A stretch of DNA of 64,000 nt from Sedimentisphaerales bacterium (GCA_963663965.2 CAXXFK010000025.1:96001-160000), one strand, 5' to 3'; positions 1-52,118 are shown, counted from the stretch's first letter. The notes: a model not told the origin generated them from the sequence alone. Program-made: numbers and translations.

Positions 1-210
1 GGGTGTGGGCGGGCCAGGCGCGGTGGGATTGGAGTTGACGGGAGCGGGCGGGGTGATATGATGGAGGGAGGTAAATAAGATTGATTTTAGAACTGGATTG
101 AGTGGCTGATATGGAAAGAGTTCAAGACAGGGATATTCTGATGGTTAGGGGAGGGGGAAGAAGCGGACTGTTCGGGTGTTGTCTTATGGAAGCTTGTACG
201 ATGAAGCGCT

Positions 211-342
211 GAGTTTTGTCGAATGATATTATGAAGAAAATATTTTAGACAGGATCATCCCGATAGCCATCGGGACTTTCAGCTCATTGACAGGATGGAT
301 CAGAAAGACGTGACAGAAAAAATCATTGGGTGCGCTTATCGG
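211..342 (+). repeat. Inter-cassette mosaic repeat copy 1 (with hairpin and GxxExxY 5' remnant)
   Basis: Contains AAGAAAATATTTTAGACAGGATCATCCCGATAGCCATCGGGACTTTCAGCTCATTGACAGGATGGATCAGAAA. Hairpin TCCCGAT-AGCC-ATCGGGA at 258-275. ATG at 295 reads MDQKDVTEKIIGCAYR. Confidence 0.9.
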
Positions 343-423
343 ATATCGCCCGGCTTAATAGTGTGGGGAATTGAATGGATAATAATAGAATAATGTACAT
401 GTGAATATTTATGCGGTGTTTCT

Positions 424-906
424 ATGAAAAAATATAATTATATAAAACAAGCCATCGTGTTAGTGATTGTTGTGGCGGGTATTTTAGTTTTATTGAATTT
501 TATTGGCGTAACAGAAAGGCCAGGTAGTATTCAGCCGTCGTTGGTAGATAATGAACTTATCTTCAAAATTAAATATGGTACAACAAATGGATTGCTCAAG
601 CTCATAATTAGAGATGCCGAAACGAACAGTATTGTTTGGGATATCAATTTAAATTATTTCTATGGGGATAAATTGGCATATGGCGAAATACCTAAAGAAT
701 TTGAAACTGACAATGGCGTAATCAATAATGCCAAGCAAAATATTCCTGCGGATGGCAAGCCTGTTGATTTGGTTGAGGGAAAAGTATATGAAATATATTC
801 TGACTGGCAATATGATGCCTTTATTTCAGCGTTCGTTGGTAGTAGAGAGGAATACTTTAAGATAGAAAAAAATAATATTGTATTTGTAGAACGGACCAAT
901 AATTGA
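424..906 (+). CDS. AT-rich membrane-anchored hypothetical protein, candidate orphan immunity protein (paralogue family A)
   Basis: 160-aa ORF with an N-terminal hydrophobic helix. Motif WDINL...LAYGEIP is shared with the ORFs at 1297 and 2780. Confidence 0.75.
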   Translation: MKKYNYIKQAIVLVIVVAGILVLLNFIGVTERPGSIQPSLVDNELIFKIKYGTTNGLLKLIIRDAETNSIVWDINLNYFYGDKLAYGEIPKEFETDNGVINNAKQNIPADGKPVDLVEGKVYEIYSDWQYDAFISAFVGSREEYFKIEKNNIVFVERTNN

Positions 907-960
907 AATTAATTATGCCCTAGACCACCGCATCGAGATGCGGGTGAGGTGGTGGATACT

Positions 961-1100
961 GTGACGCGCTATTACTTCAATGACCGCTGGCAGGTGGTGA
1001 TGGAGATTGTCGAGATTTTAAAGAAAAATATTTTAGACAGGATCATCCCGATAGCCATCGGGACTTTTAGCTCATTGACAGGATGGATCAGAAAAAAGTG
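961..1100 (+). repeat. Inter-cassette mosaic repeat copy 2 (Rhs-like fragment plus hairpin)
   Basis: Reads VTRYYFNDRWQVVMEI, then a core nearly identical to copy 1. Hairpin at 1046-1063. Confidence 0.9.
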
Positions 1101-1273
1101 ATGGATAATAATGCGTTATACAACGACAAGCTGTGCTTGACCGGTGCCATTCGTGACAGGTTGTCGAGGTTACCCGGCCGCGCTTTGGGTTGGGGAATGA
1201 AGTCTTTGACACACTGCCATTATTCTTTGGGTATGCCCCAATCCAAGTTTGGGTTATCAGACCTGTATTTCAT
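1090..1273 (-). pseudogene. Possible IS5-family transposase N-terminal remnant
   Basis: Minus strand from ATG 1273 reads MKYRSDNPNLDWGIPKE*WQCVKDFIPQPKARPG, resembling the (L/I)xDExWxxIxxLxP...GRPR start of IS5-family transposases. Has an internal stop. Confidence 0.35.
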
Positions 1274-1296
1274 CAGGTTTAGGAACGAGTTCTAAT

Positions 1297-1755
1297 ATGC
1301 TAATTAAATGGTTTAAAATTTTGATTGTTACAATATTGTGTTGCGTTATATTTGTTTTAATTTGGCTAATAGGTATTATGCCATATCATGGGGTCAATAT
1401 AGACATATTATCTAATCCCAATTTAGTGATATCCATGAAGCCATATGGCACGAGATTCAGAGGCATTAATTCCGTCATATTTAAGAGTATGAATGATATT
1501 GAATTATGGACAGTAGATTATCATCTAGGTGGAGCTGATAGCGCTTTGGAATATGGGATAACTCCTGAAGGTTGTGATCAGAGAGCTGAGGCGAAACAAT
1601 TAGAAGATGAGATGTTGGTAATAGTTCAGATATATGGCTATTGGCCTATTCCTTGTATTGATGCAGAAGTATTTTGTATTAAAAGAAATACCGATGGACA
1701 TTATGAAATCGATAAGAGAATTACAAAAAAATACAAAGGTCTAAATCTGCCCTAG
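1297..1755 (+). CDS. AT-rich membrane-anchored hypothetical protein, candidate immunity protein (paralogue family A)
   Basis: Likely ATG start at 1297, N-terminal TM helix. YHGVNI...YG...LWTVDY...LEYGITPEGCDQ aligns with the ORF at 2780. Confidence 0.75.
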   Translation: MLIKWFKILIVTILCCVIFVLIWLIGIMPYHGVNIDILSNPNLVISMKPYGTRFRGINSVIFKSMNDIELWTVDYHLGGADSALEYGITPEGCDQRAEAKQLEDEMLVIVQIYGYWPIPCIDAEVFCIKRNTDGHYEIDKRITKKYKGLNLP

Positions 1756-1838
1756 ATCTAACAAGTTGAAATAACGCCATTTTTATTAAAGCTAATAAGA
1801 GTTGTAAGTCTATGGCAATGGGATTGATGAATAAATTT

Positions 1839-1911
1839 AGAAAAATAATTTAGACAGGATGACAGGATGGATCAGAAAATAGTGACTGAAAATTTATAGG
1901 GTACGCTTATC
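1839..1911 (+). repeat. Inter-cassette repeat copy 3 (no hairpin; degenerate GxxExxY start)
   Basis: AAAAATAATTTAGACAGGATGACAGGATGGATCAGAAAATAGTGACTGAAAATTTATAGGGTACGCTTATC matches the ends of copy 1 but lacks the hairpin. Confidence 0.85.
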
Positions 1912-1934
1912 TGTCAGGATATTGTGTTGTGATA

Positions 1935-2483
1935 ATGAAAAGAAAATATGTAATCATTGTACTAATAATTTTGACGATATGGATCGTCTGGTATGAGATT
2001 CAATTTAATACTTTTTTGAAAAGATATGATATATTTTACGATGGTGGAAAGCTCAGATTTGTTGGCAGTGGACACTCAAAATTTGACATAACAATTTATG
2101 GTGTCGATATTACCGGTTATAAAAATTCTGATATCAGATTGAATTTCAATAACCTTGATATTCCCATTAATGATATTAGCCGGGAACAAATCAAAGAGTT
2201 ATTAGATGCTCAGCCGGACATTGGCTATGAGATAAATACGGATGGGACTATTGCCATTGGAACAAAATATTTAAATGGATACCTGATCCATGATTTTACG
2301 ATTTATTTGACCGATGAAGAATTTACTGTCAGCGTCAGTCTGGAACATAATAAAACTAATACTAATCAGTGTATTTTGATCATGCCTGATAAGCCCACGA
2401 TTGGTATTCCGATTAAAAGGAGTGAATTGATTAAAAAAATGGGAAAACCGGAAGAACAGTCAATCACGAGAGAATTTCCATAA
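1935..2483 (+). CDS. AT-rich membrane-anchored hypothetical protein, candidate immunity protein
   Basis: MKRKYVIIVLIILTIWIVW N-terminal anchor. Ends with LIKKMGKPE. Lies between repeat copies 3 and 4. Confidence 0.75.
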   Translation: MKRKYVIIVLIILTIWIVWYEIQFNTFLKRYDIFYDGGKLRFVGSGHSKFDITIYGVDITGYKNSDIRLNFNNLDIPINDISREQIKELLDAQPDIGYEINTDGTIAIGTKYLNGYLIHDFTIYLTDEEFTVSVSLEHNKTNTNQCILIMPDKPTIGIPIKRSELIKKMGKPEEQSITREFP

Positions 2484-2505
2484 TTTATAATAATAGTGCC
2501 TTAAG

Positions 2506-2608
2506 ATGACGCAGTATTATTACTATGGCCGCTGGCAGATGGTGATGGAGATCGTTGAGATTTTAAAGAAAATATTTTAGACAGGATGACAGGATTGACA
2601 GGATGGAT
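2506..2608 (+). repeat. Inter-cassette repeat copy 4 (Rhs-like fragment, three GACAGGAT units, no hairpin)
   Basis: Reads MTQYYYYGRWQMVMEIVEIL, then TTTTAGACAGGATGACAGGATTGACAGGATGGAT. Confidence 0.88.
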
Positions 2609-2779
2609 ATACAATATGAGACATGCGGCAAGATTGAGGTGTTATATGGGGATGGATTGGCTGGAACAGCCGTTAGTTACCACGGAATACACGGACCACG
2701 CGGAAGAAAACAGAGGAGAAAGAAGCGTTGTGTTTTGGCGATTGGATGTTAATAAACTAATAATCAGGTAGAGGTGGCT

Positions 2780-3235
2780 ATGAAAGGCAAGACGATATGG
2801 ATAATAGTTGGTATATTTATAATATCAACCATTTTGTATTATTGTTTTAAATCTTCATATTATGGTGTGGATATGACAGTGATCGATGCCTCAAAACCTG
2901 TTTTTGAGTTCAGGCAATATGGAATATCGAAACAAGGATTATGTTCAATGCATTTTGAAACAATTGACAGAACAATGCTCTGGGATTTAAACATTATCAA
3001 TGCTCCTTCGAGTATACAAATGACCTATGGCATTGTGCCAGATGATGCTGAACAGTTACAAGAACCACTTGATTTGCCGCCGGAAGAGATATGGGTTTTT
3101 GTTGAAGGGATTTTTGATGTTCCGATTCCGGTAATTGCAACCGAGTCATATCGCATCAAGAAAATCGAAGGACAATATGTTATTACTAAACGAACTTCGG
3201 GTATATTCAAGCCGATCAACCTGGCAGGATTATGA
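2780..3235 (+). CDS. AT-rich membrane-anchored hypothetical protein, candidate immunity protein (paralogue family A)
   Basis: GAGG upstream of ATG 2780, N-terminal TM helix. YYGVDM...QYG...LWDLNI...MTYGIVPDDAEQ. Confidence 0.75.
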   Translation: MKGKTIWIIVGIFIISTILYYCFKSSYYGVDMTVIDASKPVFEFRQYGISKQGLCSMHFETIDRTMLWDLNIINAPSSIQMTYGIVPDDAEQLQEPLDLPPEEIWVFVEGIFDVPIPVIATESYRIKKIEGQYVITKRTSGIFKPINLAGL

Positions 3236-3408
3236 GCCGGAGGTGAATTCGACGGAGTTGCCGGAACAGCCGGTTATTACCACCGAGGTCGTCGAGTTCA
3301 CAGAGGGTCCCAATGGTGTTTTGACTGTGAATGAGTTATTTGCTTTAGCGGCCGATCCGAACGATTCATTGGGTGCGCTGCTGGATCCCAATAGTATGGG
3401 ACTGATTG
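3236..3408 (+). pseudogene. Start-less coding fragment (possibly Rhs-derived) interrupted by IS256
   Basis: Reads ...LPEQPVITTEVVEFTEGPNGVLTVNELFALAADPNDSLGALLDPNSMGLI. After removing the IS the frame continues as AADTGISVIKNVVQYSKKTI*. Confidence 0.4.
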
Positions 3409-3429
3409 GGTAGTGTCAAGAATCTTTCG

Positions 3430-5365
3430 GTAGCGCCAGGTAACTGGCAAGGAGTAGCGGATGCAAGAGCCGTACAATGAAGGTTTAGCAAACCACATTG
3501 GCCCCGAGTCATGTGGGCATACCGGTAACGGTATGCTTGAAGCGTTGACAGGGGAAGATGCGGGCTGGGTATTGAGCCGCGTAAGTTTGTACATTATAGA
3601 ACGGAGTGCCGACGCTGTCGAAAATGTCGGAAGGCAACACCGGATGTCTTATTATCGCGAGAGACATTCCGGACTCCGCGCGGTCGAAGACCCCAGGCAC
3701 GCATGGACACTTCTTGCACAGGAACTGGGAGATCCCTTGTTTGGCCTCAGGACACATTATCCTGTGGTCCGCACAGAAAATCCAATTGGAGTACTGCTGT
3801 GATGAACGAACAGGGGAAGTCGGACAGGCCCATAGTACCTAAGAAGTTCTCGAACAAAGAGGCTGGTTGCCATGCCTTGGCGGAGAGGATAGAGGGAAGG
3901 GGCCTGACCAAGGGCAATTCGTCTCTACTGCACAAGTGCCGGACACCGGGCCGGGAAAGCTTGCCAAACGCATTAGAACGAATACGACAGGCAGCCACCC
4001 GGGATAAACAGCTAAAGTTTACTTCCCTGTGGCATCATGTCTATCATGTCGACCACCTGAGAGAAGAATTCTATCGCATTAAGCGGCAGGCTTCCCCGGG
4101 TGTGGACGACCAGACATGGCAAGAGTATGAGGCCGGGTTAGAGAACAATCTCAATAGCCTGGCAGAACGACTGAGAAAGGGGGCATATCGGGCAAAACCG
4201 GTAAGGCGGGTATTCATCCCCAAACCGGATGGACGCCAGCGTCCCATTGGTATTACTACCATTGAGGATAAAATCGTCCAGCGTAGCACGACTACGGTAT
4301 TGAACGCTATTTATGAGGCTGACTTCAAAGGCTTCTCCTATGGCTTTCGTCCCGGTCGCAGTGCTCACAACGCCTTAGATGCTCTCTATGTCGGCATACT
4401 CAAGCGTAAGATAAACTGGGTACTCGACGCTGACATCAGCGGCTTCTTTGATGCCATCGATCACGATTGGCTGATTAGATTCGTCGAGCACCGAATCGGA
4501 GACCCGCGAGTAGTACGGCATATCAAGAAATGGTTGAATGCTGGAGTCGTGGAAGAAGACAAACTTCTGCAGATCAAGGAAGGCACCCCGCAAGGTGGGA
4601 GCATATCGCCATTGCTGGCGAATATCTACCTTCATTATGTATTTGATCTGTGGGCTGACCAATGGCGAAAGCGTAACGCCAAAGGGCATATGATTATCGT
4701 TCGATATGCTGACGATATCGTTGTCGGATTCCAATATCAATCGGATGCCAATAGATTTCATACGGACCTGCAGAATCGATTTGGCAAGTTCAAGTTGAAG
4801 CTTCATCCGGCCAAAACCCGGCTCATTCAGTTCGGCCGCTATGCGACAGAACGAAGGACTACTCAAGGTAAAGGCAAGCCTGAGACATTCGACTTTCTTG
4901 GCTTTACGCACATCTGTTCCAAGTCAAGTAAAGGTCGGTTTATGTTGCTCCGGTTGCCGATGAGAAAGCGGGTGCAGGCCAAGCTAAAGGAAATCAAGGA
5001 ACAGCTCAAATACCGGCGCTATACCTCGATTCCGGAGATGGGCCAGTGGCTTCACTCTGTTATCAGCGGCTGGTACCGATACTACGCCGTTCCTAATACA
5101 TCTCGCTATCTTGGCACCTTTCGCCGTAGGGTCGCCTGGCTTTGGTTCAGAGCGTTAAGAAGACGCAGTCAACGAAGCCGCATGACCTGGAGGCGAATGT
5201 ACCAACTGATAGCAAGATGGCTTCCGCAGCCTAAAATTCTGCATCCGTACCCCCAGGCACGCTTACAAGCTGCTCGTTATGACCCGAGGTAGGAGCCGTA
5301 TGCGGTAGTTCCGCTCGTACGGATCTGTGCGGGGGGCTGGGAGTAATCCCAGTCCCTACCGCGAC
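3430..5365 (+). mobile_element. Group II intron (bacterial class E-like), 1936 nt
   Basis: 5' GTAGCGCC. Domain V GAGCCGTATGCGGTAGTTCCGCTCGTACGGATC at 5293-5325. Domain VI ends CCCTACCGCGAC. Removing 3430-5365 restores the IS inverted repeat. Confidence 0.93.
3802..5292 (+). CDS. ltrA: Group II intron reverse transcriptase/maturase (no endonuclease domain)
   Basis: Motifs PKPDGRQRPIGI, SYGFRPGRSAH, GTPQGGSISPLLANIYL, RYADD and FDFLGFTH. Likely start MNEQGKSDRPIVP at 3802. Confidence 0.95.
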   Translation: MNEQGKSDRPIVPKKFSNKEAGCHALAERIEGRGLTKGNSSLLHKCRTPGRESLPNALERIRQAATRDKQLKFTSLWHHVYHVDHLREEFYRIKRQASPGVDDQTWQEYEAGLENNLNSLAERLRKGAYRAKPVRRVFIPKPDGRQRPIGITTIEDKIVQRSTTTVLNAIYEADFKGFSYGFRPGRSAHNALDALYVGILKRKINWVLDADISGFFDAIDHDWLIRFVEHRIGDPRVVRHIKKWLNAGVVEEDKLLQIKEGTPQGGSISPLLANIYLHYVFDLWADQWRKRNAKGHMIIVRYADDIVVGFQYQSDANRFHTDLQNRFGKFKLKLHPAKTRLIQFGRYATERRTTQGKGKPETFDFLGFTHICSKSSKGRFMLLRLPMRKRVQAKLKEIKEQLKYRRYTSIPEMGQWLHSVISGWYRYYAVPNTSRYLGTFRRRVAWLWFRALRRRSQRSRMTWRRMYQLIARWLPQPKILHPYPQARLQAARYDPR

Positions 5366-5469
5366 CACATTTTTTATTAGTCTTTCATCTGGTAGAGTCT
5401 TTCAATGGAGGAGGGAGGGACAACTCCCTGCCCTGCCTCCCCGAGGGGAGGCAAAAATTTATCGGACGA

Positions 5470-6711
5470 TCATGCCATGACCACCTCCTCTTTTTCAGCT
5501 TTTTTCTCCTTCTCCAACTCATACAAATGATCCATATTCAAATAACGCCTCGTACCCCATTGGGTGCCGGCAATATGTCTCAGGCGGGCCGTGGCCAGCA
5601 TCAGGGCCGAGTGACCATCCGGGAAATTGCCCACCACGCGCGTACGACGACGAATCTCACGCATGATCCGCTCCAGTGGATTATTGGTTCGCAACTGCCG
5701 CCAGTGCTTGTCGGGATATTGATAGTAAGTGAGTGTTTCGAGATAGCTTTCCTGGACCAATTCAGCGGCCTTGCCCAGTTTCATCTCCCGCAATTTGACA
5801 ATCACTTGCTCGGCCTTCTGGATCGCCGCCTGGCGGTCTTCCTGGGCATGGATGGCCTTGAGCATGGCCGCTACCTCTCGCACCTTCTTGCGCGGCACAT
5901 GACTGAACACGTTGCGATACCAGTGGACCGTGCAGCGCTGCCAGTCGGCCTCCGGAAAAACCTCGGCCAGCGCGTCCACCAGACCCAGGCATTTGTCGGA
6001 AACAAACAGGCGAACGCCCTGCAGGCCGCGGCGCTTTAAATCGCGTAAGAAACCGCCCCAACCGGCTTTATCCTCTTTGGCGCCCTCGCAGGAACCCAGC
6101 ACTTCGCGATAGCCCTCCTGATCGACGGCAATGGCCACCAGAATCGAAACATTCTTGACTTCGCCGCCCCAGCAACGTTTCAAAACGATGCCGTCCAGAT
6201 AGACATAGGGATACGACCCTTCCAGTTTGCGGTTGCGCCATTGGTCGATCTGTTGATAGACTTTCTGATTCAGATTGCTGATGGTGCCCGCACTGACACG
6301 GGCGCCCCACAGGCTTTCGGCGATGTCTTCGATACGCCGGACCGAAACGCCGGCCAGATACATCTCGATCAGGGCCTCTTCTACCGAAGACTCCCGGCGT
6401 TTATAGCGCTCGATGATGGCGGTTTCAAAGGTCGTTTTTCGCAGCTTGGGCATCTTCAAATTCACTTCGCCGGTCGTCGTATGAAACTTACGCGGATAAT
6501 AGCCCGCCCGGGTATCGGTGCGGGCCTGGGTATGTTCATAACGCTGGGCGTTGCAGAGCTGGTCCGCCTCGGCGTCCAGCAGGGCATTGAGCGTGTCTTC
6601 CACACTCTGGCGCACCATCTGGCCCAACTGATCCTTCATCTGGGATTGGTCGATTTTTAAAATTTGGTTCAAGTTCCTAACGTCACTGGTCGATTCTTCT
6701 GTTTGACTCAT
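5470..6711 (-). CDS. IS256-family (Mutator-like) DDE transposase
   Basis: EMYLAGVSVRR, YVYLDG, LFVSD, QRCTVH and RTNNPLERIMREIRRRTRVVGNFP. GAAAGGA RBS precedes ATG 6711. Confidence 0.96.
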   Translation of the reverse strand: MSQTEESTSDVRNLNQILKIDQSQMKDQLGQMVRQSVEDTLNALLDAEADQLCNAQRYEHTQARTDTRAGYYPRKFHTTTGEVNLKMPKLRKTTFETAIIERYKRRESSVEEALIEMYLAGVSVRRIEDIAESLWGARVSAGTISNLNQKVYQQIDQWRNRKLEGSYPYVYLDGIVLKRCWGGEVKNVSILVAIAVDQEGYREVLGSCEGAKEDKAGWGGFLRDLKRRGLQGVRLFVSDKCLGLVDALAEVFPEADWQRCTVHWYRNVFSHVPRKKVREVAAMLKAIHAQEDRQAAIQKAEQVIVKLREMKLGKAAELVQESYLETLTYYQYPDKHWRQLRTNNPLERIMREIRRRTRVVGNFPDGHSALMLATARLRHIAGTQWGTRRYLNMDHLYELEKEKKAEKEEVVMA

Positions 6712-6902
6712 AGTCAGTCCTTTCATTTGGTGGTAGGTTTCGGTTTCAAAAACTTCATCGACCAGATGAAGGACTGTTTTTACGGTGTCCTATAATATGT
6801 GCGAAAAATATTTTACCTTATCACTGATTGCTGCTGATACAGGGATATCAGTTATAAAAAATGTAGTGCAATACAGTAAAAAAACAATCTAGGAAAATTA
6901 AT

Positions 6903-7301
6903 ATGAAGATTGGGAATCAAAAAGTCTTTAGTGTTATTTTGTTAGTTGGTTTAGCTACAATAGTTTATATGTTAATTAAATCAAATGGAAACAATGAAAA
7001 CGATGAATTAGTAGAGACGATGTCGATATATGTAATTGAAAAGAATCCTAACAAAGTGTCTGAGATACCAATTAAATTTCATAAAGAAGATAAAATTACA
7101 AATACCGTGTGGATTGAATGTAACATAAAAGATAAAGGCAATGCTTATTATAAGGCTACAGAAGGATCATCATTTTCATTAGATGAAAATCCTGATTTAA
7201 CCAATAAACCGATTGATATAAATCTGTGTTTATTAAAAAATGAAGACGATAAAATTATTGTAGGTACAACTTTTGGATTATCATTGGAAGTAATTAAATA
7301 A
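6903..7301 (+). CDS. AT-rich membrane-anchored hypothetical protein, candidate immunity protein
   Basis: 132-aa ORF with an N-terminal TM helix, followed directly by repeat copy 5. Confidence 0.75.
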   Translation: MKIGNQKVFSVILLVGLATIVYMLIKSNGNNENDELVETMSIYVIEKNPNKVSEIPIKFHKEDKITNTVWIECNIKDKGNAYYKATEGSSFSLDENPDLTNKPIDINLCLLKNEDDKIIVGTTFGLSLEVIK

Positions 7302-7315
7302 ATTATGTGCCAGAT

Positions 7316-7465
7316 AGTTACAACAATGACCGCTGGCAGATGGTGATGGAGATTTTCGAGTATTTAAAGAAAAATATTTTAGACAGGATCATCCCGATCC
7401 CGATGGCTCGGGATTTCGCTTTGCTCAATATCCGGGACTTTCAGCTTATTGACAGGATGGATCAG
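7316..7465 (+). repeat. Inter-cassette repeat copy 5 (Rhs-like fragment plus expanded, nested hairpin)
   Basis: Reads YNNDRWQMVMEI. Core GACAGGATCATCCCG[ATCCCGATGGCTCGGGATTTCGCTTTGCTCAATAT]CCGGGACTTTCAGCTTATTGACAGGATGGATCAG. Confidence 0.88.
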
Positions 7466-7813
7466 GAATTGCTGGGAATTTATGTAACGCAAAGGCGCAG
7501 GGTTGGGATGAGTTGATTGCCACTGATACGAGGATACAGGGATTTTTGCCGAAGATTCTGGTAATGCGTGTGACAGCTTCGGCGGCGGGGTGGCGTTCTT
7601 TCGGCTCCTCCTGAGGCGGATCTTCGACTTTCGGGCCTTTTGCGGGGGTCAATTTTTTCCGAATAAAAACACGCTGAAGGGCCTGTTGCCCAAAAGTAAA
7701 TCAAGCATCTCTGCTTGACATTTAGTCATTCCAAACGTGGTTTTTAAGCTGATAATCGGGTTAATGTCATAATCAAAACAACACTCTTAAGTTAAATTGG
7801 CTTTAAGCAACAT

Positions 7814-7963
7814 GCCCTGAAGCGTGAACTCCGAACGGGCCAGAGACTGACAGCCCACCGGGCTTCAGTTGTGCAGATGTGAGTATTATTAATATTGTGA
7901 GAGGAGGGTGTGATGTATTATAATAAACAGGATGGGCGGAATTCAGGCTGTCTAGCCATTTAG
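7814..7963 (+). other. Structured non-coding element followed by a strong RBS and 16-codon ORF; possible IS110-family left-end remnant
   Basis: Outer stem CTGAAGC (7817-7823)/GCTTCAG (7862-7868) encloses inner stem GGGC-CAG-AGA-CTG-ACA-GCCC. Then GAGGAGG and ATG 7913, reading MYYNKQD...*. Confidence 0.4.
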
Positions 7964-8025
7964 AGAGACAGTACTTGTTTTTTAGGAGTAATTGTGATAA
8001 TTATAAATAGAATAGCATACTTTAT

Positions 8026-8325
8026 ATGCATAGCAATATGAACAATAAAAAACTGATATTATTAATATTGATTATAGATGCCATCCTTATTGGTATTACC
8101 GGGATTTTAGTGTCAAATAAAGAATATAGTTCGATGATGATGCAGTCAGTTTTCGCATTTCTGGCCGGTATTGTGCAAATTATTCTTTGCATTTCCGGCC
8201 TCATAGTCAACAGGCGCTTTTATAATAAGGGGGCGATATTATTTTATATCCTGCATATAATTATCACGCTGGTTTTTGTAAATATTTCAGATAGCGGATA
8301 TTTTTACCATAAATATGGACACTAA
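8026..8325 (+). CDS. Small AT-rich integral membrane protein (about 3 TM helices)
   Basis: 99-aa ORF with three hydrophobic segments. Same strand and composition as the other array genes. Confidence 0.65.
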   Translation: MHSNMNNKKLILLILIIDAILIGITGILVSNKEYSSMMMQSVFAFLAGIVQIILCISGLIVNRRFYNKGAILFYILHIIITLVFVNISDSGYFYHKYGH

Positions 8326-8417
8326 GAAAGAGGATAGGATTGTGCCTAATGATGATAAAGAATGGAGTGATAGGAATAAATACGAGGAACAGAAAGTTAT
8401 AGTGCCAAGGAGTTATT

Positions 8418-8684
8418 ATGAAAGATAATGACAATCGCAACGTGAATGATTATCCGGAAAAGAAGGGCACCGTGGATATTTATCATGAGTTGGCAGAAGA
8501 TCAGGTTGATGTTGTTTATATTGAGGGGGATCGGGCCGGGCTGGAAAGTCTGGCGGAATTGTTATTATGGTTGACGCGTCATACCGGTGTGGAGCCGATG
8601 GATGATCATATTCATCTGCATCGAAATGTGCAATTGGGGAAACGGTCTTGTGAAGTTGCGGTTTATTGCCGGGAGGATGTGTAA
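8418..8684 (+). CDS. Imm32-like immunity protein
   Basis: AAGGAG RBS. Acidic 88-aa protein with IEGDRAGLESLAELLL...DDHIHL, matching the pattern recalled for Imm32. Confidence 0.6.
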   Translation: MKDNDNRNVNDYPEKKGTVDIYHELAEDQVDVVYIEGDRAGLESLAELLLWLTRHTGVEPMDDHIHLHRNVQLGKRSCEVAVYCREDV

Positions 8685-18047: not shown

Positions 18048-18581
18048 AATAACTCCAAAGTAAGGATAAAGAGTATAACTCATTGGGCGTCAATATATTG
18101 TATTTTTCTTATCCAGAATAATTTTGAATGTTAAAATAGGGAGTTTTTGGTCATGGCGTTTGAAGGTGAATCTTTGATATTTCCAGGAAATATGATGACA
18201 GGATTTTGTGATAATGGCTTGAAAATAAATAGGATTGCTCGAAAAGACCAATGGATGTTGAGAGGAAGTAAACAAATAAAATAATTTTCTGGATTTTTCA
18301 GGTTATTTAGCTTATTAATTGGCTATCAGATAAAAATAGAATTGTTGAGAAATTAGCTGTTTGTTATCTGAACTATTTATCTCATATTGGTTTATTTTGA
18401 GGTGGAGAATGTGTCTGTCTGTTCTGTATTGGTTAGACGTTTATTTTTATGGCGGTAACTCTTTCTTTTGGACTCTTTCCCACTCAGGTTTAGATCGGGC
18501 AGAAGCCAAACTATCGAGGTTATTCTGAGGGCACATTTACCATTTTGCTGGTTTAATTTGATATCTACAAAGGAATTAACG

Positions 18582-21500
18582 ATGAAAAACGCTGTTGTGC
18601 AATTGGTTGTGGTCGTGTTAATCATGTCTTCGCTGGTGTCCGGTCAGTATTCCGGGGGGGGCGGGACGCAAGCGGCGCCTTACCAGATTGCCAGCGCAGC
18701 AGATTTGATTGCGCTGGGAGAGAATACGGGCGATTACGACCAGCATTTTATTTTAACGGCAGATATCGATCTGGCCGGGTATGAGTTTAGCCAGGCGGTG
18801 ATTGCGCCGGATACGGATAATGGTGATTGGAACGATTTTCAAGGGACCGTTTTTAACGGGGTACTGGATGGGAACGGTCATCGCATCTTAAATTTAACGA
18901 TCAACGGATCGGAACAGGATTATGTTGGCTTGATTGGCAATCTTGGAACAGACGGGCAACTAAGACACATCGGCCTGGAGAATGAAATTGTATACTGTCG
19001 CAGTTACTGTGGCGGTTTGTGCGGATTCAGTTCTGGAGCCATCTCTCACTGCTACAGCAATGGCCTCATTAATGGCAATTATATGGTTGGGGGTTTATTG
19101 GGTTATAATAGCGGCGGTCTGGTCGAAGCCAGTTATGCGATGAGTGCTGTGACGGTGTCGAGTAGTTACACGGGCGGTCTGGTGGGATTTGGCTATGGAG
19201 TCATCACTGCCTGTTATTCCAATAGTATCGTAACAGGAACCTGGAACGCCGGCGGCATTATCGGTGAGAACCGCGGCCTGATCGAATATACTTATGCCCT
19301 TGGATCAGTCAGCGGCAATGGCCGGGGAGGCATTGCCGGCAACAATATGGGTGAAATCAAATACAGCTTTTGCGCCTGTCAGATTTATTCCGAATACCAG
19401 ATCAATAATATTGGCGGCCTGGTGGGCCAGAATAGTTATGATGGTAAGATTGTCAGTTGTTTCTGGGATCGTGATGTCGCCCGTGCGGCCCTGAGCGATG
19501 GCGGATATGGCCGATCCACGACAGCCATGCAAAGCCAGGGAACCTATCAAGGCTGGGGCGGTGGTATCTGGGTAATCGATGAAGGCAACGATTACCCCCA
19601 TTTATCCTGGGAAAATACAACCGGGACTTTCATTAATAATGTTCCAGGTCGCAGTTATAGCGGTTCGGGCACAGAAAGCGATCCTTATCGATTAAGTACT
19701 GCCCAGGATATCCGGAATATGTCGCTGCGCGCAGAAGATTGGGACAAGATGTTTGTTTTAACTTCCGATATCGATTTGACCGCCCTTGAGAATTATCTGC
19801 CCCCCTGTGATTTCAGTGGAAAACTGGATGGCCAGGGATACACCATTACCAATTTGAGCATCCAGGAAGCCACCTCCTATTTAGGTTTGATCGGGTGTTT
19901 AAGCGAAGGCGGAATTTTGTGTGGTGTGAGGCTGGATAATGTAACTATTTCAGGATATCGGTATCTCGGGGGGCTGGTTGGTTTTTCCTATAAAAGTTAT
20001 ATCGATCAGTGCTCGGTGAATGGCAGTATCGGCAGTAGTTATAATCAATCCAGTCATATTGGCGGTTTAATTGGCTATAGTTTTGGAGGGGTCGTTGAGA
20101 GATGTTACAGCCGGGGTACGGTTGCCGGGACCACCAATGCGACTTATGTTGGGGGATTAGTGGGTTATCATTATGCCAGTTGCGTGATGGATCACTGTTA
20201 CTCGTTTTCGGATATCACCGTGGGAGCGAATGCCAATTATATTGGCGGCCTGGCAGGCACCAACTGCGGCGGTGATATTTACAACAGTTTTTCGGCCGGT
20301 CAGGTTGCGGCGGGGCCTAATACGGTAAACATCGGCGGATTGATTGGAGGCAATTATAACAGTAATGTGGTATCCAATTGTTACTGGGATACAGAGACAT
20401 CCGGCATGGCGTATAGCGATGGCGGATTTGGGCGTTCGACTCAGGACATGAAAACTGCGTCGACTTATATCGGCTGGGAGGGCGGCTGGACCATCGATGA
20501 AACACAGGATTATCCGCATTTATTCTGGGAGAATGCGGGAGGGATTCGTATCGACACGATTCCGGCGTGTTCTTATCCGGGATCGGGAACACAAGCGGAC
20601 CCTTATCGACTGGCCACGGCTGAGGATGTGTATTGCATGTCTTGCCGGCCGGGAGATTGGAATACTCACTTTACGCTGATGAATTCAATTGATATGTCCG
20701 GGATTATCCGTTATCAGCCGCCGGCCGGTTTTGGAGGGACGATCGAGGGTAATGGTTATCAGATTCAGAATTTAATTATTCAGGAAAACACGTCTTACCT
20801 GGGCCTGATCGGTTATTTGTCGGACAGCGGCGAACTGGTCAATGTTCATGTGGCCGATTGTTTGATTTCAGGGTATCGCAATACCGGAGGGCTGGCGGGC
20901 CTGAATCATTCCGGGACGATAGAAGGCTGCTCATCAACCGGTCAGATTGCCGGCATGGATCAATCGGAAAATATCGGCGGCCTGGTCGGCTCCAATGATT
21001 ATGGTGTCATTTCCAAAAGCTACTCAGCTTGCGAGATAGCATCTGGCAATGACAGCCGCGCTATCGGCGGCCTGGTGGGTTATAATGTCTATCACACGAT
21101 TATCGATCAATGCTATACTACCGGTGCGATCTATTGTTTGAGCAATACCAGTTGGGTTGGGGGTCTGGTCGGATACAGCTGGTATGGAGATATGCATGAT
21201 TGTTATTCAGCATGCGGTCTTCAGATTGGAGATAATTCCGGAAAGGCCGGAGGACTCATTGGATCAGCAGGATATGAAACTCAGATCGAGTATTGTTATG
21301 CGACCGGTCAGATATTAACGGGTAATCATTATTCGAGTGTGGGCGGTTTAATCGGAGACTTATATTATAATTGCTCGGTTAACGGTTCTTTCTGGGATAT
21401 GGACTCTTCCGGCTGGTCAACCAGCAATGGGGGGACCGGCCTGGATACGGCTTCGATGAAAGCTATCGAGACCTATCTGGCGGCGGGATGGCGTTTTCCT

Positions 21501-24500
21501 GGTTCATCAAGTGACACGCCGGTCTGGTATATGCCGGATGACGATTATCCTCATTTTCTATGGGATATCAAAGTATTCGTTCCTGATGTCGTGGGAATGT
21601 CTCAGGCGGACGCCAGGTCGGCTTTGCTTGCGGGGGGGTTAGATATTGCTGTGACCATGGTGAATAGCGATACCATACCGGCAGGCCAGGTGATCAGTCA
21701 GATGCCGATTGCGGGTACTGAAGTGAACGGGGGTTCGGTGGTTACCCTGGTCGTATCGCGTGGCATGCCGGTGGAAATTTATGTTGGCGATGGCACGGAT
21801 AGCTGGAATTATCCTTTATCCACCTACTATCACGATGCCCGGACGCAGACGATCTACCGGGCGGAAGACATCGGCGGGGCGTGTGTGCTGGTTGGTCTGA
21901 GTCTGGATATCACCCAGCTGCCGGGGCAAGCCATGAACAATTTTACGATTCGGATGAAGCATACGGATTTGAATGACTACTCCAGTTCGGCCTACTGGGA
22001 GGCGGAAGGCTGGACGGTGGTCTACCAGGCGAACGAAACCATTGAATCGGCCAATTGGGTGGATTTTGTGTTTCAGGCGCCTTTTGTCTACAATGGTGTT
22101 CAGAATCTGATGGTGGATATTTCCTTTAACAACAACTACTATACCTCAGATGGATTATGCCGCTGCTCGACACTGGGGGGCATGCGTTCGCTCTATTATC
22201 GAACGGACAGCGGTTATGGCGATCCGCTGAACTGGTCAGGGTATAGTCCCTCCCCGATGGGTTCCAATTTCAGTCCGAATCTTCGGCTTGCCCTGGGAAG
22301 TGGAACCATGGTCACTGTGCCGGATATAACAGGCCTGACCCAGACGGAGGCAGAGTCTGCGTTGTTGGCGGCCGGGTTGAAGATCGGCAGGGTGACCCAG
22401 GGCTTTAGCGATCTGGTTGAATCAGGTTTGATCATCAGCCAAATGCCAGCGGCCGGAAGCATGATACCCGAGGGATTTGGCATCAGTATACAAATATCAC
22501 TGGGCCGGCACTATTCGGGTGGAAGCGGCACGGCTGACAATCCCTATAGAATCGCTACCATGGCGGACTGGGTAAACCTGACATGGGATAGCGCCAGTTG
22601 GGATAAACATTTTATTGTGACTGCGGATATTGACTTTGGGGGTGCGGAGATCACCCCGGTGGCTTTTGACAGCAACTCCTCCAGCAACGGTTTTCAGGGA
22701 ACTTATTTTACCGGAACGCTGGATGGCGGCGGGAAGGTTCTGAGCAATTTCGTTATTAATCAGCCTGAGAGTGATTATGTGGGATTGTTTGGCTATATCC
22801 GTTGGGGTGGTCAGGTGATGGATCTGGGATTACATGGAATAGTAACTGGCCGTCATTATGTCGGCGGGCTTTGCGGGTATAATTATGGAACGCTTAGTCG
22901 TTGTTTTGCTGGCGGTACAATTACTGGAAGAAATTATCTTGGAGGTTTTTGTGGATGGAATGGGGGCAGCATTACCCATTGTTATGCCACAGGATCGGTT
23001 TCCGGGAACTATGCTATTGGCGGGTTATGCGGCTATAGTGCGTATGGTACGATCGGGCAGAGTTACGCTGCCGGGTCCATTAATTCAACAGGAAGTTCTG
23101 GCGGGCTGTGTGGATCCAATAGGGATAGTAACGTATTCGATAGTTATTGGAATATTGAAACGTCGGGGTTGTTCTACAGCCAGGGCGGTTGGGGCTTAAC
23201 CGATGAACAGATGAAGCAGGCCGGGAGTTATTATGGCTGGCAGGATGGGGTCTGGACCATTGTAGAAGGAGAGGCATTTCCACGGCTGGCCTGGGAGCAT
23301 GGCAGCGGTGATGTCATCGCGACCGATTACCCAGCCCGGACATACGGTGGATACGGCAGCGAAACCGATCCGTTCCAGATAGGCAGTGTCGATGATCTGG
23401 TCAGCCTGAGCCGCCGGACGGATGATTGGAGCGCGAGTATTGTACTTATGGCGGATATCGATCTGGAGGGAATCCCATTCAGTTATCCGGTAATTGCCGG
23501 TGGCGGCGGTCAATTTAATGGCGTATTCACAGGCAATAATCATGTCATTTCCAATCTGGCCATTTCAGGTGAAGGACAGAGTTGTATTGGATTAATTAGC
23601 ACAATAGGGTATGACGGCCAGGTCAGTCATCTGGGACTGGAAGATCTGAATATTGCCGGTGGGGATAGGGTTGGTGGTGTGTGCGGGATCAATCGGGGTA
23701 TGGTTACCCAGTGTTATATGACTGGCGCGGTGGCGGGCAACTCTTCTGTTGGCGGCTTGTGTGGTTCTAATTCAGGCATGATCAATCAGTGTTATACGAT
23801 GGGTACGATTACGGGCCAGTCTGGCGAGATTGGGGGTTTATGCGGCGATCATGATTATGGTTTGATCACCCAATGTTATTCTGTCAGCTCAGTAGCCGGG
23901 GCAGAATATTCATATAATGTTGGTTCGTTATGCGGGATGTATGATGGCGCTGGGGCTGAAAACAATTATTATCTCCGTTCTCCGGGCCATACCGATGATC
24001 GCGCCATGGGGTTGACAGACACAGAAATGACTTGCCGGGAGAGTTTTTCCCATTGGGACTTTGCCGGCATCGTGGAAGACGGTACGGCAGATGTCTGGGC
24101 CATTGAAGAGGGGGCGGACTCCCCCCGGTTCGCCTGGCAGGAACTGGCCGAACAAGCAGTGCCTGATGTATTAACGTTATCTCCGACTGAGGCCGCTACG
24201 ATTTTACAGAATAACGGTTATGAACCAGGTTCGATCCGTTATTATTACAGCGATACGATTCCTGCGGGCCGGATAATCTATCAGTCGGCCACGGCGGGTC
24301 ATCGCGTGACACGTGGCCGAACGATCGGTTTGTACGTTTCCAGGGGGCGTTCGCCTTATGGCGGGGGCGGAGGTTATCAGGCTGATCCCCTCCGGATCGA
24401 TGATTTAGGCGATTTTCTGCTGCTATCTTACCGGCCGCAGGATTACGACAAGTATTTTGTTTTGACCTCGGATATCGATTTAACGGGGATGGGAGACAAT

Positions 24501-47987: not shown

Positions 47988-50900
47988 TTGAAAATGAATA
48001 GATTAAAACTGTTCTTAATTTTGTCGGTCACTCTGGCTTTTTTGGTTAGTCCCATCGTTGCCGCGCCTCTATCTACGGTAATTTATCAGGATACATTTAC
48101 CAGTGACGGTACGATTCGTTTGCCCGGGAGTTCACCGAATAATACGCCCATGGGTGATTCCGCGTTACGATGGAAAGCGTATAACAACTTTAAATTTGCT
48201 GAAGTAAATGGTAACAATGTAGTTCTTACCCTTGGTGCTGGTGAGGACTATTCGGCCATGTTGGATACCGATCTGTCGGCTATTAAAGGCACGATTCGGA
48301 TTGAGGCGGATATTATGCCTTATACTTCCGGCACCAATAAAACGAACTGGGCCAGAATTGGTTTTCAGACCGAAACGGTGCCGGCAAAGTACAGTACTTC
48401 CGATACTGCCGAAACCTGGATGTTGTTCCGCGCCAACGGCGGTTACCAGATTTTTTACAATGGCACAAACACTGGCGGCGATTCAGTGCCCGGCTATACC
48501 CTGGGAACTGTAGCTAATGTGAGTATTACTTTCAATGCCATAACCGGCGAAACCACCTATATGATCAACAACAATGTGCTTGCGACCGTTAATTTGTCGG
48601 GCACCGCGTTTATGACTGCCGCCAAACGCCCCTTCTTCGGGACTCACGATGTTGATCAGTATTTCGATAATTTCACCATATCGATGGAAGGCGCCACTAC
48701 CGCGCTGGTCAATCCCAGCCCGGCGCCGGTCCGGGTGCCTGTTGACTACGAATTAAACTGGGTTTCAGAACCCTCCGGAGGCAGTACTTTTACTTATGAT
48801 GTTTATCTGGGCACTGATTTGGCACAGGTCGCCAATCGCAACAGCGCCGTCCGGATTGCGGAAGGATTGTCTGTTACCAGCTACAGTCCTGCGCTGGATT
48901 ATGAAACCACCTATTATTGGCTGGTCGATACCCTGATCGACGGCGATCCCAATCATCCCACTGCCGTGGGTAGTTTTTCGACGGACTATGAAGAGCAGAA
49001 ATGGACCAACAGTCATTGGATGACGGATGCCGATCTGCCGTTAAGTTTTGGTAAATTCTATACCCATGCGGTGAAATTCAATGCCGCCAGCGAAGAGATT
49101 CCGATCACCGTTAAGGGGATCGTCTTCGAGCCGGCTACCGATCGGGGGGAAGTCGGCGACAGTTGGGTGATGACCGGGGCAGCCGGGCATCATGAAGGTT
49201 CTACGCCCTTTACGGGGACTGGCGAAGGGCGCATGCTGGCCGGCCGTTTCTTCTATGGCTCGCCGGCTACGATTACCATGAATGGTTTGACTCCCGGCGT
49301 TCAATACCGCACGACTCTTTATTCGTTCAGTTGGGGACTCCAGGGCGCCCGTGTGATTCAGGTGGGCACCAGTGGTGATAATCAAGTTAACCTGCTGGAT
49401 GAAAATTACAGCGCCGACACGATCGGCCGTTTGTTCTATTACACCTATACCGCGCCGGAATCGGGCAGTCTGACTCTCAGTTTCGATCAGACGGTTTACA
49501 ATTCCGCCTGGCATCATTATGCCTTCAGTAACGAATTGTATACACCGGTTTACCTGGATCCCACGCCGGCGCCGGGTGGCGATGGTACTCCGAATATCAC
49601 TTTATCCTGGCAGCAACAGGGAGAGGTCGAAGGAACCGTCACTTACAATCTGAAAGTTGCCACCGATCCCAATATGGTCAATCTGGTTGATGATAAGGCC
49701 GGCTTAAACAGCACCTCTTATCCGATCAGTCTTTCCCCGGATACCCAGTATTACTGGACGGTTGCCATAGCCCAGAATGGAACGGTGATCTATACCAGTC
49801 CGGTCTGGGACTTCATTACGACCCCGCAACCTCCCAAGAAATGGACCAGTACCTCCTGGATGAGTGATGACGACCTGCCGTTGAGTTTCGGCAAGACCTA
49901 CACCCATCTGGTCAATCTGAATACCAATGAATTGGTATCAACCTCTGTCAAAGGGATCTTGTTCGAAAACGATTCCGACAAGACCGGCGCCAACTGGTCA
50001 GTGGTTGCTCCCAATCCGCATAGTGAAGTTCGTTTCACCGGTACCGGTGATGGCCAGGCGCTGGTCAGCAGCTTTTTCTATGGCAACGGCGAACTGGCCT
50101 TGACCGGCCTGACTCCGGGCGTTGAATACCGGACGACTCTTTATACCTATGGTTTCGGTGATATTGGCGGGCGCTTTAACCGGGTGACTGCCAGCGATGA
50201 TGGTCAGTTCGAGATACTCGATGGCAATATGGATGGCAACGGCAAGGGCCGTTTGTTCCACTATACTTATGTGGCGCCGGAATCGGGGGCCCTGACACTG
50301 ACCTTTACCGCGTTAACAGGCGATACCTGGCATCAATATGCCTTCAGCAATGAAGAATATGCCCCGGTATATCTGGATCCCACGCCCCTGTCCGGGGTTG
50401 AAATGTTCCCCAGCCAGCTGAGCTGGAAACTTAACGGTGAAGTGGCCGAGCCGGTTACCTATAACCTGACGGTTGCCACCGATCCCAACCTGGTCAATCA
50501 AGTAATCAACGAAACCGGCTGGACGCCTACCAGTTACGCGGTCAGTCTGACTCCTAATACCCGTTACTATTGGTCCGTGGCAGTGGTTGAAGATGGTACG
50601 GTGATCTATACCAGCCCGGTTTGGAATTTCCTGAATACGATTCCTCCCTATGCCAATAAGGTTTTGGAATGGACATTCGATGAAACGGGCGGTCCGATCG
50701 CCGATCAAACCGGTCCCAGCGATGACGCCGATGGTATTCTGACCGGATTCATTGATCCGAACAGCACGGTTCGCAGCGCGGGTCTGGTGAATACCTGTAT
50801 CCGGCTGAATGGCGCCAGTGAGCGTGAATTTGTCGATATCAGCAATGCGGCGCCTTATATGCCTACGGGTGATGAACAGGCGTTTGCCATTTCCGGTTAT

Positions 50901-52118
50901 TTCCGCACCTTCGGCAATTACGGACCGGTGTTCTCCATGCGTCAAGTTGCTTCCGGTACGCCATTGATCGATATTGCCATTGGTTTGGATGGCCTTCAGA
51001 ACGAGCCGGGCCGTTTGTGTCTGCTTGTTCGTGACGACACAGGTTTAACCATGGGCTGGATTAATTCAGGAATTCAGGTAAATGATGGTCAGTGGCATGC
51101 CTTTGTTGTCAGCCGGTCTCAAGGTGTCTGGGAAATGTATATCGATGGCGTCAAACGCGCCTCTCGCAGTGGGATTGCCAGCGGCGCGGTGACTCTGGAC
51201 ATGCTGGGTATCGGCGCCGAGTTGCGCTGGATAGGCGACAACTGGAATGAATGGCGGACTCACTATCGCTACTTCAATGGCGATATGGATGAAATCGTGG
51301 TCTGGGCCGGCAAGATGCCTCAGATGCAGATCGATGAACTGGCCGCGGTTGTTCCGCCGTTGAACGATCTGAACAGTGACATGGCCGTTGATTCAGCCGA
51401 TCTGGGCGTAATGACCAATAGCTGGCTGGAAGATACCGCCACTCCGGTTCAGGATACCCTGGTTCTGGAAGATATGGAATCCTATAGTTATGATCCGAAT
51501 GATCCACTGTTGCAGACCTACTGGGCGCCTCCGGTGGGAGATGTCTTTGGCATTACGGAATTCTCGATACTGGATGATCCCAATGATGGGCATGGCAAGG
51601 TTCTGCGTATGGATTATGATTTCAACGGCAAGACGCAGATTGAAGGTTACTTCTGGCTGCGTGACCGCCGGTGTGATTTCGGTCAATACGATCTGTTCCG
51701 AATGACTGCCAAGAAACTGCCCGGCAGTACCAATGGGGCCCTGTATCTGGATCTCTATGATGGCCGCGGTCTGACCGATCCTGTCAAGGAAGAGTTGCAC
51801 CGTAAGGGCCGTATTCAGATTGATACGACTACCATTCCGGAAAATCAATGGGTGACTCTCGAAGTGCCGATTCCGGCTGGATGGGCCTCAGGCGGTTCAT
51901 TACCGGCTACCAGTCATGATCTGTATCAATTGGCGATTCTGATTGTTACTTCGGATACCGCCGGCAGCGGCGCATTCCTGTTGGATACCATTGAACTGAC
52001 CGACGGAACACCCACTTGTGTTCGTCCTGTGGTGGTTGAAAATGGCGCCGATCTGAACGGTGATTGTATGACCGATCTGGCCGATTATGCCCGACTGGCG
52101 CAGAGCTGGCTGGAGTAA
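47988..52118 (+). CDS. Large secreted protein with internal ~280-aa duplication, LamG, CBM-like domain and two dockerin-like motifs
   Basis: Signal peptide. Duplicated KWT...LPLSFGK.YTH...YTSPVW.F block, LamG (NDGQWH, FNGDMDEI) and DLNSD/DLNGD...WL motifs. Confidence 0.85.
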   Translation: MKMNRLKLFLILSVTLAFLVSPIVAAPLSTVIYQDTFTSDGTIRLPGSSPNNTPMGDSALRWKAYNNFKFAEVNGNNVVLTLGAGEDYSAMLDTDLSAIKGTIRIEADIMPYTSGTNKTNWARIGFQTETVPAKYSTSDTAETWMLFRANGGYQIFYNGTNTGGDSVPGYTLGTVANVSITFNAITGETTYMINNNVLATVNLSGTAFMTAAKRPFFGTHDVDQYFDNFTISMEGATTALVNPSPAPVRVPVDYELNWVSEPSGGSTFTYDVYLGTDLAQVANRNSAVRIAEGLSVTSYSPALDYETTYYWLVDTLIDGDPNHPTAVGSFSTDYEEQKWTNSHWMTDADLPLSFGKFYTHAVKFNAASEEIPITVKGIVFEPATDRGEVGDSWVMTGAAGHHEGSTPFTGTGEGRMLAGRFFYGSPATITMNGLTPGVQYRTTLYSFSWGLQGARVIQVGTSGDNQVNLLDENYSADTIGRLFYYTYTAPESGSLTLSFDQTVYNSAWHHYAFSNELYTPVYLDPTPAPGGDGTPNITLSWQQQGEVEGTVTYNLKVATDPNMVNLVDDKAGLNSTSYPISLSPDTQYYWTVAIAQNGTVIYTSPVWDFITTPQPPKKWTSTSWMSDDDLPLSFGKTYTHLVNLNTNELVSTSVKGILFENDSDKTGANWSVVAPNPHSEVRFTGTGDGQALVSSFFYGNGELALTGLTPGVEYRTTLYTYGFGDIGGRFNRVTASDDGQFEILDGNMDGNGKGRLFHYTYVAPESGALTLTFTALTGDTWHQYAFSNEEYAPVYLDPTPLSGVEMFPSQLSWKLNGEVAEPVTYNLTVATDPNLVNQVINETGWTPTSYAVSLTPNTRYYWSVAVVEDGTVIYTSPVWNFLNTIPPYANKVLEWTFDETGGPIADQTGPSDDADGILTGFIDPNSTVRSAGLVNTCIRLNGASEREFVDISNAAPYMPTGDEQAFAISGYFRTFGNYGPVFSMRQVASGTPLIDIAIGLDGLQNEPGRLCLLVRDDTGLTMGWINSGIQVNDGQWHAFVVSRSQGVWEMYIDGVKRASRSGIASGAVTLDMLGIGAELRWIGDNWNEWRTHYRYFNGDMDEIVVWAGKMPQMQIDELAAVVPPLNDLNSDMAVDSADLGVMTNSWLEDTATPVQDTLVLEDMESYSYDPNDPLLQTYWAPPVGDVFGITEFSILDDPNDGHGKVLRMDYDFNGKTQIEGYFWLRDRRCDFGQYDLFRMTAKKLPGSTNGALYLDLYDGRGLTDPVKEELHRKGRIQIDTTTIPENQWVTLEVPIPAGWASGGSLPATSHDLYQLAILIVTSDTAGSGAFLLDTIELTDGTPTCVRPVVVENGADLNGDCMTDLADYARLAQSWLE

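Follow-up and report, generated by a model that had tools for sequence, protein, structure and literature searches.

What places seven small, co-oriented, immunity-like genes in a row, alternating with a repeat and with no toxin gene among them? The question is raised by a 64-kb stretch (the window, 64,000 nucleotides) of contig 25 from a Sedimentisphaerales bacterium (GCA_963663965.2, CAXXFK010000025.1:96001-160000, or C25:96001-160000). The assembly, G000, has 7.2 Mb in 42 contigs and is 94.6% complete. Positions without a contig name count from the first letter of the window. A first-pass annotation had read positions 211-8684 as a cassette array of orphan immunity genes with the repeat as a recombination handle. 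We find that the repeat joins a scar of an Rhs core gene to an arm of a dispersed element. The row is probably a collapsed Rhs toxin-immunity array, whose genes were kept and likely protect against the Rhs toxins of competitors.

Six of the seven genes follow remnants of an Rhs core

All seven open reading frames (ORFs) lie on the + strand: g1 424-906, g2 1297-1755, g3 1935-2483, g4 2780-3235, g5 6903-7301, g6 8026-8325, and g7 8418-8684. With the five repeats numbered r1 to r5, the order is r1-g1-r2-g2-r3-g3-r4-g4-g5-r5-g6-g7. The alternation of gene and repeat that had been claimed for the first five genes therefore holds from r1-g1 to r4-g4 and fails between g4 and g5, where there is no repeat. 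The AT-rich character holds for g1-g6 (27-36% GC, genome mean 49%) but not for g7 (46%). A single N-terminal hydrophobic segment, the proposed membrane anchor, is found in g1-g5; g6 has three such segments in all, and g7 has none. The gaps between consecutive ORFs measure 390, 179, 296, 3667, 724, and 92 nt, and only tip-less core scraps and no toxin gene lie between these co-oriented genes.

Scanning both strands of the window, we found the motif TTTAGACAGGAT..GACAGGATGGAT five times (244-300, 1032-1088, 1849-1872, 2576-2608, and 7378-7462), in agreement with the annotation, and nowhere else. The repeat is a composite of a 5′ stub of Rhs-core coding sequence and a 3′ arm of a dispersed tandem repeat. 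Three copies carry a stub of the type YY.NDRWQ.VME, for which an Rhs origin had been suggested. This origin is borne out, as the stubs of repeats 2, 4, and 5 agree with an intact module of Rhs type on contig 15 (C15) at 44/44, 37/44, and 34/44 nt, respectively.

Comparing match scores with those of 100 shuffled sequences, we detected Rhs-core remnants on the + strand ahead of g1-g6, each scoring above all 100 shuffles. The remnant before g1 (138-233) is degenerate and weak (score 48-50 against a best shuffle of 46-47). A stub matching the Rhs core, RRIEMR..YYFNDRWQVVME (912-1006), precedes g2, and a short one, VYGNGIDE (1804-1830), precedes g3. Ahead of g4, repeat 4 (2507-2608) consists of a stub (2507-2549) and an arm, and is followed by a remnant of the WLEQPL region (2658-2733) that overlaps a second arm subtype. 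The remnant before g5, from the DPN region, is cut by an insertion sequence (IS) after 3250-3408 and continues beyond it at 6823-6851. Ahead of g6, repeat 5 (7302-7462) joins a stub (7302-7352) to an arm with a longer hairpin insert. A further remnant from 7513 to 7650 (score 72 against a best shuffle of 67.5) is strongest in its first 50 nt and is overlapped by a dispersed hairpin. The scan detected no remnant before or after g7.

The spacer remnants are co-linear with the Rhs core and belong to one core family, which also heads intact modules of core, toxin tip, and immunity gene on C15 and C20. All of them stop short of the DPxG motif and of any toxin tip, and the window has no TIGR03696 match; the annotation had likewise seen no such motif or tip. 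The 26 kb upstream, where it recommended looking for a full Rhs gene, contain no Rhs gene of any kind. Three full-length Rhs frames of other core families occur at C11:99935-106792 (2285 aa), C21:30744-50192 (6482 aa), and C6:298678-305067 (2129 aa). None of them is the parent of the stubs in the window.

In another genome, a g1 homologue takes the cognate slot behind an Rhs tip

Three of the seven genes form one family. To g1 (160 aa, with an N-terminal anchor), g2 (152 aa) and g4 (151 aa) are joined at E 8e-24 and 1e-22, respectively. The mutual identities are 19-29%, with g2 and g4 29% identical; the three are not products of recent tandem duplication. A full HMMER scan gave 23 representatives of this family, two of them from the window itself. 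One homologue, in G013 from the same family of genomes, shares 46% identity with g1 over 157 aa (E 2e-48) and is placed closest to it in the tree (support 90/83, not starred). This gene starts 59 nt after a gene composed of Rhs core, DPxG motif, and tip, and a toxin-less core stub then follows. Neither Pfam nor the solved structures gave a match to the G013 tip. A search of G000 with it, made for g1 only, gave no match (best E 0.74 in the 94.6% complete assembly). The idea that the spacers retain the last codons of old toxins found no support against the G013 tip, the sole tip compared. For the g1 family, the reading as candidate immunity genes is supported.

The predicted structure of g2 (three-row alignment, pLDDT 78) has a transmembrane helix and an FN3/Ig-like sandwich, and a fold search with it returned generic FN3/Ig matches (best Z 7.9). 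No Pfam or NCBIfam name applies to g1-g6. Profiles of the g1 family matched 1 of 400 phylum genomes and 1 of 300 order genomes. They matched none of 300 class genomes, none of the 50 Rhs-holding genomes searched out of 59, no plasmid, and nothing in two metagenome scans. A word-indexed search with the three-row g1/g2/g4 profile found no outside relative. Two atlas leads for g4, unnamed clusters (0.89) and the DUF7480 lipoproteins, immunity proteins of type VI secretion systems (T6SS; 0.82), remained below 0.9 and were not used as evidence.

At the end of the row, g7 (88 aa) is Imm32-like (PF15566; E 2e-5, 24.8 bits, under the 27-bit cut-off). In 120 order genomes we found seven homologues, one after an Rhs core and tip and one among small membrane genes. 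The claim of orphan immunity genes thus gains ground from the g1 homologue behind an Rhs tip and, with one homologue in seven, from g7. For g3, g5, and g6 it has their position to go by.

Neither a word-indexed search nor 150 order genomes yielded a relative of g3 (182 aa, anchored) outside G000, and the 150 genomes yielded none of g5 (132 aa, anchored). For g6 (~99 aa), no informative relative appeared among 116 Rhs loci, the only set searched. A TipC-like atlas lead for g3 (0.78) was again below 0.9 and was not used as evidence. In position and build, the three resemble the cognate-slot genes of G000 and of most of 13 loci from relatives in the order, where the genes after Rhs tips have low GC and an N-terminal anchor. 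Short toxin-less stubs also trail several of these Rhs arrays.

The arm belongs to a dispersed family associated with GxxExxY genes

Of 57 GACAGGAT arms across the genome, 10 belong to the composite and the other 47 are spread over 37 loci and 19 contigs. Scatter of the repeat across the genome, apart from such ORFs, was to speak against the annotation, and it turned out to be true of one half of the repeat, the arm. This arm is one subtype of a purine-rich family of tandem 8-9-mers (102 matches compared with 10-11 in shuffles). The family stacks into gene-less arrays and flanks GxxExxY (PF13366) genes; related arm subtypes flank four of five intact ones.

In repeats 1 and 3, an ATG within the arm opens the first codons of a GxxExxY gene. 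Repeat 1 has a GACAGGAT arm with a 7-bp hairpin insert (237-300) and, from its ATG, a 5′ stub of the gene (295-345; 41% over 22 aa, pairwise E 3e-4). In repeat 3, the arm is accompanied by a decayed stub (1838-1912). The ATG at 1083 in the arm of repeat 2 (1007-1088) opens a 70-codon frame ending 1 nt before g2. The ATG frame of the arm stops 1-45 nt ahead of the next gene in six of seven cases (post hoc, Fisher-combined p about 0.005 over 6 cases). Folding of the + strand gave no long hairpin in the arm (z -1.8 to +0.9), apart from the optional 7-bp one. The repeat has no match to an Rfam family, and promoter-like sites are about as many as chance would give (17 against 14.4).

At C10:244531-245031, C1:191054-191601, C28:553282-554104, C26:100984-101353, and L136:13580-16240, co-oriented modules of 60-200 nt form stacks that contain no genes. 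The modules begin AAAATAT-AACAGCC, each with a different tandem 8-9-mer subtype, and the order varies by locus. The core of one intact Rhs module carries, at C15:188440-188520, an in-frame unit of arm type within a long insertion ahead of the GNPY motif.

The joint recurs at four loci, and the duplicated genes are mosaics

The joint of stub and arm is present at four loci: the C25 array, C40, C15, and C20. The C40 locus is a 94% identical copy of window positions 52-2608 and carries three of the seven array genes. It keeps the order g1-g2-g3. Gene order fixed across relatives was expected to tell against a cassette array; here the order is kept in a paralogous copy within G000. On C15 and C20, the joints sit within ordinary arrays of core, tip, and immunity gene. 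Behind the C15 joint lies a gene that shares 33% identity (E 4e-25) with a C12 gene located 2 nt behind a toxin with an Rhs motif. The gene behind the C20 joint shows a weak likeness to a C15 cognate-slot gene (40% over 40 aa, pairwise E 1e-4). The joints all map to a single short stretch of the Rhs core and differ in small deletions, a confinement that suggests one ancestral insertion behind all of them.

Aligning C25 with C40, we counted 7 mismatches in 307-423, 22 in 424-669, 0 in 670-925, 4 in 926-1110, 1 in 1111-2212, and 41 in 2213-2483. Compared in this way, g1-g3 on the two contigs are mosaics with two exchange breakpoints, inside g1 and g3. Such intragenic breakpoints are expected from general recombination and not from cassette exchange at the repeat. 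In the diverged tracts, the ratio of nonsynonymous to synonymous differences (pN/pS) between the alleles is 0.25 and 0.31, which indicates purifying selection.

We also searched the genome for tyrosine recombinases, this class and not serine recombinases being covered. None of the 16 matches is near the four loci: the nearest lies 61 kb from the array, others 25 kb (partial) from the C40 copy and 70 kb from C15, and C20 has none. In read contigs (no more than two samples, the source probably among them), the depth of those with g1-g3 is about double that of those with g5-g7. This is in line with a real C40 copy, contig depth being a poor measure of copy number. The repeat-to-repeat joints in sample contigs have flanking sides of just 22 nt. 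Because the breakpoints are intragenic, no tyrosine recombinase is nearby, and the arm has no more structure than shuffled sequence apart from the optional hairpin, a dedicated capture system is unlikely. The recombination handle of the first-pass annotation is accordingly not supported as a dedicated one, half of the repeat being a dispersed arm.

Probable collapse of an Rhs array, and its alternatives

We observed the Rhs remnants, their joint with the arm, the mosaic copies, and the cognate-slot homologue; an order of events and a protective role are what we infer. A GxxExxY cassette would have landed in an Rhs core and broken it. The resulting joint would then have been copied among modules through ordinary homologous recombination or gene conversion. 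Modules would have been added serially through recombination within the conserved core, the route suggested for Rhs and T6SS displacement arrays of Vibrio and enterobacteria (PMC5361080, PMC3150448). Tips would have been deleted, with selection retaining the immunity genes, whose anchored products may lie on the periplasmic side and bind toxin tips that enter. The IS256 element carrying a group II intron inserted later.

Several observations weigh against such a collapse with protection. The spacers of the window bear no likeness to the G013 tip, and a full-length Rhs with the stub of the window is absent from the assembly (94.6% complete). The homologue in G674 (E 1e-7) sits behind a peptidase-like lipoprotein gene, presumably C45-like by its motifs, and not behind Rhs. 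The cognate-slot position is thus found at one of the two outside g1-family loci with a neighbourhood in view. Five of the seven g7 homologues have no toxin or array in their 3-kb loci. Of the homologues that were to be looked for behind Rhs tips, the one in G013 and one of g7 lie there, and the one in G674 and these five do not. By their position, g3, g5, and g6 may be immunity genes, and they have no informative relatives; all seven are candidate immunity genes, and their protective role is putative. No VipB/T6SS gene was matched in G000, at its stated completeness; therefore, toxin delivery may not be by T6SS. Plain decay leaves unexplained both the enrichment of arms at Rhs modules and the presence of one joint before different genes at four loci.

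The last two points bear on an active part for the arms. GxxExxY arms could be working parts of Rhs evolution in this family: they would land in Rhs cores, form the joints where tips are removed and from which modules start at new loci, and supply the start codon of a translated leader, with an immunity library built from toxin-immunity pairs without an integrase; we hold this to be doubtful. Arm-assisted assembly, in which the nuclease or arm homology promotes tip-stripping joins and the spread of modules and the arm ATG begins a translated leader, seems rather doubtful too. Of 26 orphan Rhs modules, 8 have an arm at their start on their own strand and none has one there on the opposite strand, compared with 1.2% of windows drawn at random and 1.9% of those with low GC. 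Three of the 8 share one junction, and the 26 leave out four full-length or tip-less Rhs frames. Six of the 37 non-composite arm loci are ≤3 kb from an Rhs core (expected 1.8%, P 5e-5), compared with 1 of 26 for a control dispersed repeat. Sequences part ways immediately after the arm, and the closeness of its ATG frame to the next gene would suit a leader. In G004, from another genus, a broken GxxExxY gene lies between two Rhs stubs that are 94-98% identical to the upstream core. There, a duplicated stub-plus-arm unit with another arm subtype surrounds an ankyrin-containing lipoprotein gene. A similar joint evolved in this other genus. However, 31 of the 37 arm loci are away from an Rhs core, and of about 18 GxxExxY genes, counted over the four genomes having them, just 2 are ≤3 kb from one. 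By the patterns used, 14 of 19 Rhs loci of relatives have no arm; the C25/C40 breakpoints avoid arms; and the literature found reports no biochemical activity for the GxxExxY family. The control repeat is a dispersed family containing an ORF that starts MSSSLRRLRANRRNAQKSTGPKT, with 26 copies (C25:70800-72600 and about 25 other loci).

A neutral origin would make the row a junk region, in which membrane proteins of other function sit in a dispensable island among Rhs scraps, arms, and an IS and have no protective role. The region also took up the IS and intron, no toxin is near one homologue of the g1 family and five of g7, and the fold is a generic FN3/Ig sandwich. Against this, Rhs remnant and gene alternate strictly, six times, a g1 homologue holds a cognate slot, and the genes are under purifying selection; we find a neutral region very improbable. 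A dedicated site-specific capture array, integron- or rAID-like, with the repeat as att site of a trans-acting recombinase, is scarcely credible: the joint is conserved ahead of unrelated or distant genes (arm parts 21/24 to 28/28 identical, g1/g2/g4 19-29%), but the nearest tyrosine recombinase is as distant as described, the arm has no long hairpin, repeat lengths and joints vary by copy, g5 and g7 have no repeat ahead, and the C40 duplicate preserves the gene order.

Mobile elements and surroundings of the array

The stretch between g4 and g5, in which the first-pass annotation left out two mobile elements, holds a 3.4-kb IS256-family element on the - strand (3409-6822; transposase 5470-6726). 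It splits the Rhs remnant and is bordered by an 8-bp target duplication (3401-3408 / 6823-6830). A group II intron with a reverse transcriptase/maturase (3430-5365, + strand) sits in its terminal repeat. The same combination is 99.9% identical on C6 (271482-274896) and C28 (182289-185702), and IS256 and intron transposed as a composite. An intron in the terminal inverted repeat of IS256 is thus present in three near-identical copies, with target duplications here and on C6.

At the other end, a leader segment (52-137, + strand) is common to the starts of Rhs-module loci on C40, C20, and C30, and more weakly on C38. Its copies are at C40:107475, C20:322179, C30:94223, and C38:53166. The layout at C30:94000-98055 is leader, arm, small membrane gene, arm, and Rhs orphan module. 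The neighbours of the array on C25 are carbohydrate-type genes. Further along the window, very large ORFs with internal repeats (2882, 1376, and 2291 aa) lie at 18468-27116 and 47988-59269.

A different arrangement of Rhs parts was seen at C15:175818-181285 (L004) and C12:62285-64885 and, in relatives, at L131:14569-19248 and L129:3067-3396. These genes encode a signal peptide, of Rhs itself only the C-terminal motif (YD..GRWLS.DP..DG.N.Y.Y), and a tip that varies, without the YD-repeat shell, and each is followed by an immunity-like gene. On C15, two of them alternate with a transglutaminase-like gene. They are possibly a shell-less, Sec-exported derivative of Rhs.

Comparison with known systems

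The concept of a toxin-less immunity array is already in print, which bears on the proposal of an undescribed immunity-gene library. In the literature searched, in which subscription papers are thinly covered, no description turned up of the gene families of this array or of the joint of stub and arm. The search also yielded no Rhs toxin-immunity paper for the likely lineage (Phycisphaerae, Planctomycetota), a placement drawn from gene content and from the named relatives of the proteins.

In rAID cassette arrays, genes reportedly alternate with a repeat. Unlike rAID or integron arrays, the C25 array has no recombinase near it and no attC-like fold, and its repeat is half coding remnant and half dispersed element. 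Partnerships of a nuclease and a repeat are known from REP/RAYT. Likewise, the small nucleases of the Ssn family have a dispersed repeat of their own, NTS, and may shape recombination near variable genes (PMC11893778). GxxExxY is a PD-(D/E)XK family with tandem 8-9-mer arms for which, unlike Ssn, the literature found describes no activity. The tie between its arms and Rhs would give this widespread nuclease family, on which the literature searched has almost nothing, a first testable role.

Polyimmunity loci (Zhang et al. 2012, PMC3482391; bioRxiv 10.64898/2026.07.13.738213) resemble the array in having at least four co-oriented immunity-type genes with no intervening toxin gene, and both mix paralogues with unrelated families. 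Polyimmunity loci have small intergenic distances (Zhang 2012), unlike the 92-724 nt here and the 3.7 kb at the IS. Recombination features beside Rhs poly-immunity arrays were described by Martinkus et al. 2026, according to bioRxiv 10.64898/2026.07.13.738213. In contrast to both kinds of cluster, the spacers here are long and filled with remnants, and no recombinase is adjacent. In the accessible text of PMC3482391 and bioRxiv 10.64898/2026.07.13.738213, extended polyimmunity loci are reported from four phyla only, planctomycetes not among them.

Orphan immunity arrays of the T6SS in Vibrio cholerae (PMC5361080) and of Rhs1 in Serratia (PMC10539506) arise from sequential displacement. As in the C25 array, their immunity genes lack a cognate toxin and are homologous to cognate immunity genes of other strains. 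Their assembly is by homologous or homology-facilitated recombination without an integrase, and we propose the same here. They trail an active effector in a T6SS cluster, whereas the C25 array stands alone, with no VipB match. Spacers with Rhs stubs fused to GxxExxY arms are a feature of the C25 array, unlike those of Vibrio and Serratia.

In the orphan arrays of rhs-CT/rhsI and cdiA-CT/cdiI, exchange through the conserved core was proposed (Poole et al. 2011, PMC3150448). The likeness lies in tandem, same-strand modules that start with core and end with immunity gene, and in IS insertions. Unlike those arrays, the tips and DPxG motifs here are all gone and there is no upstream full-length rhs; an intact-module version resembling them occurs elsewhere in G000, on C15 and C20. 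The g1 family would add an unnamed group of membrane-anchored, beta-sandwich immunity candidates, and with one cognate toxin tip in hand, protection is testable. Beside these systems, the C25 array would represent the last stage of an Rhs displacement array, in which every tip is gone and only the core scars remain.

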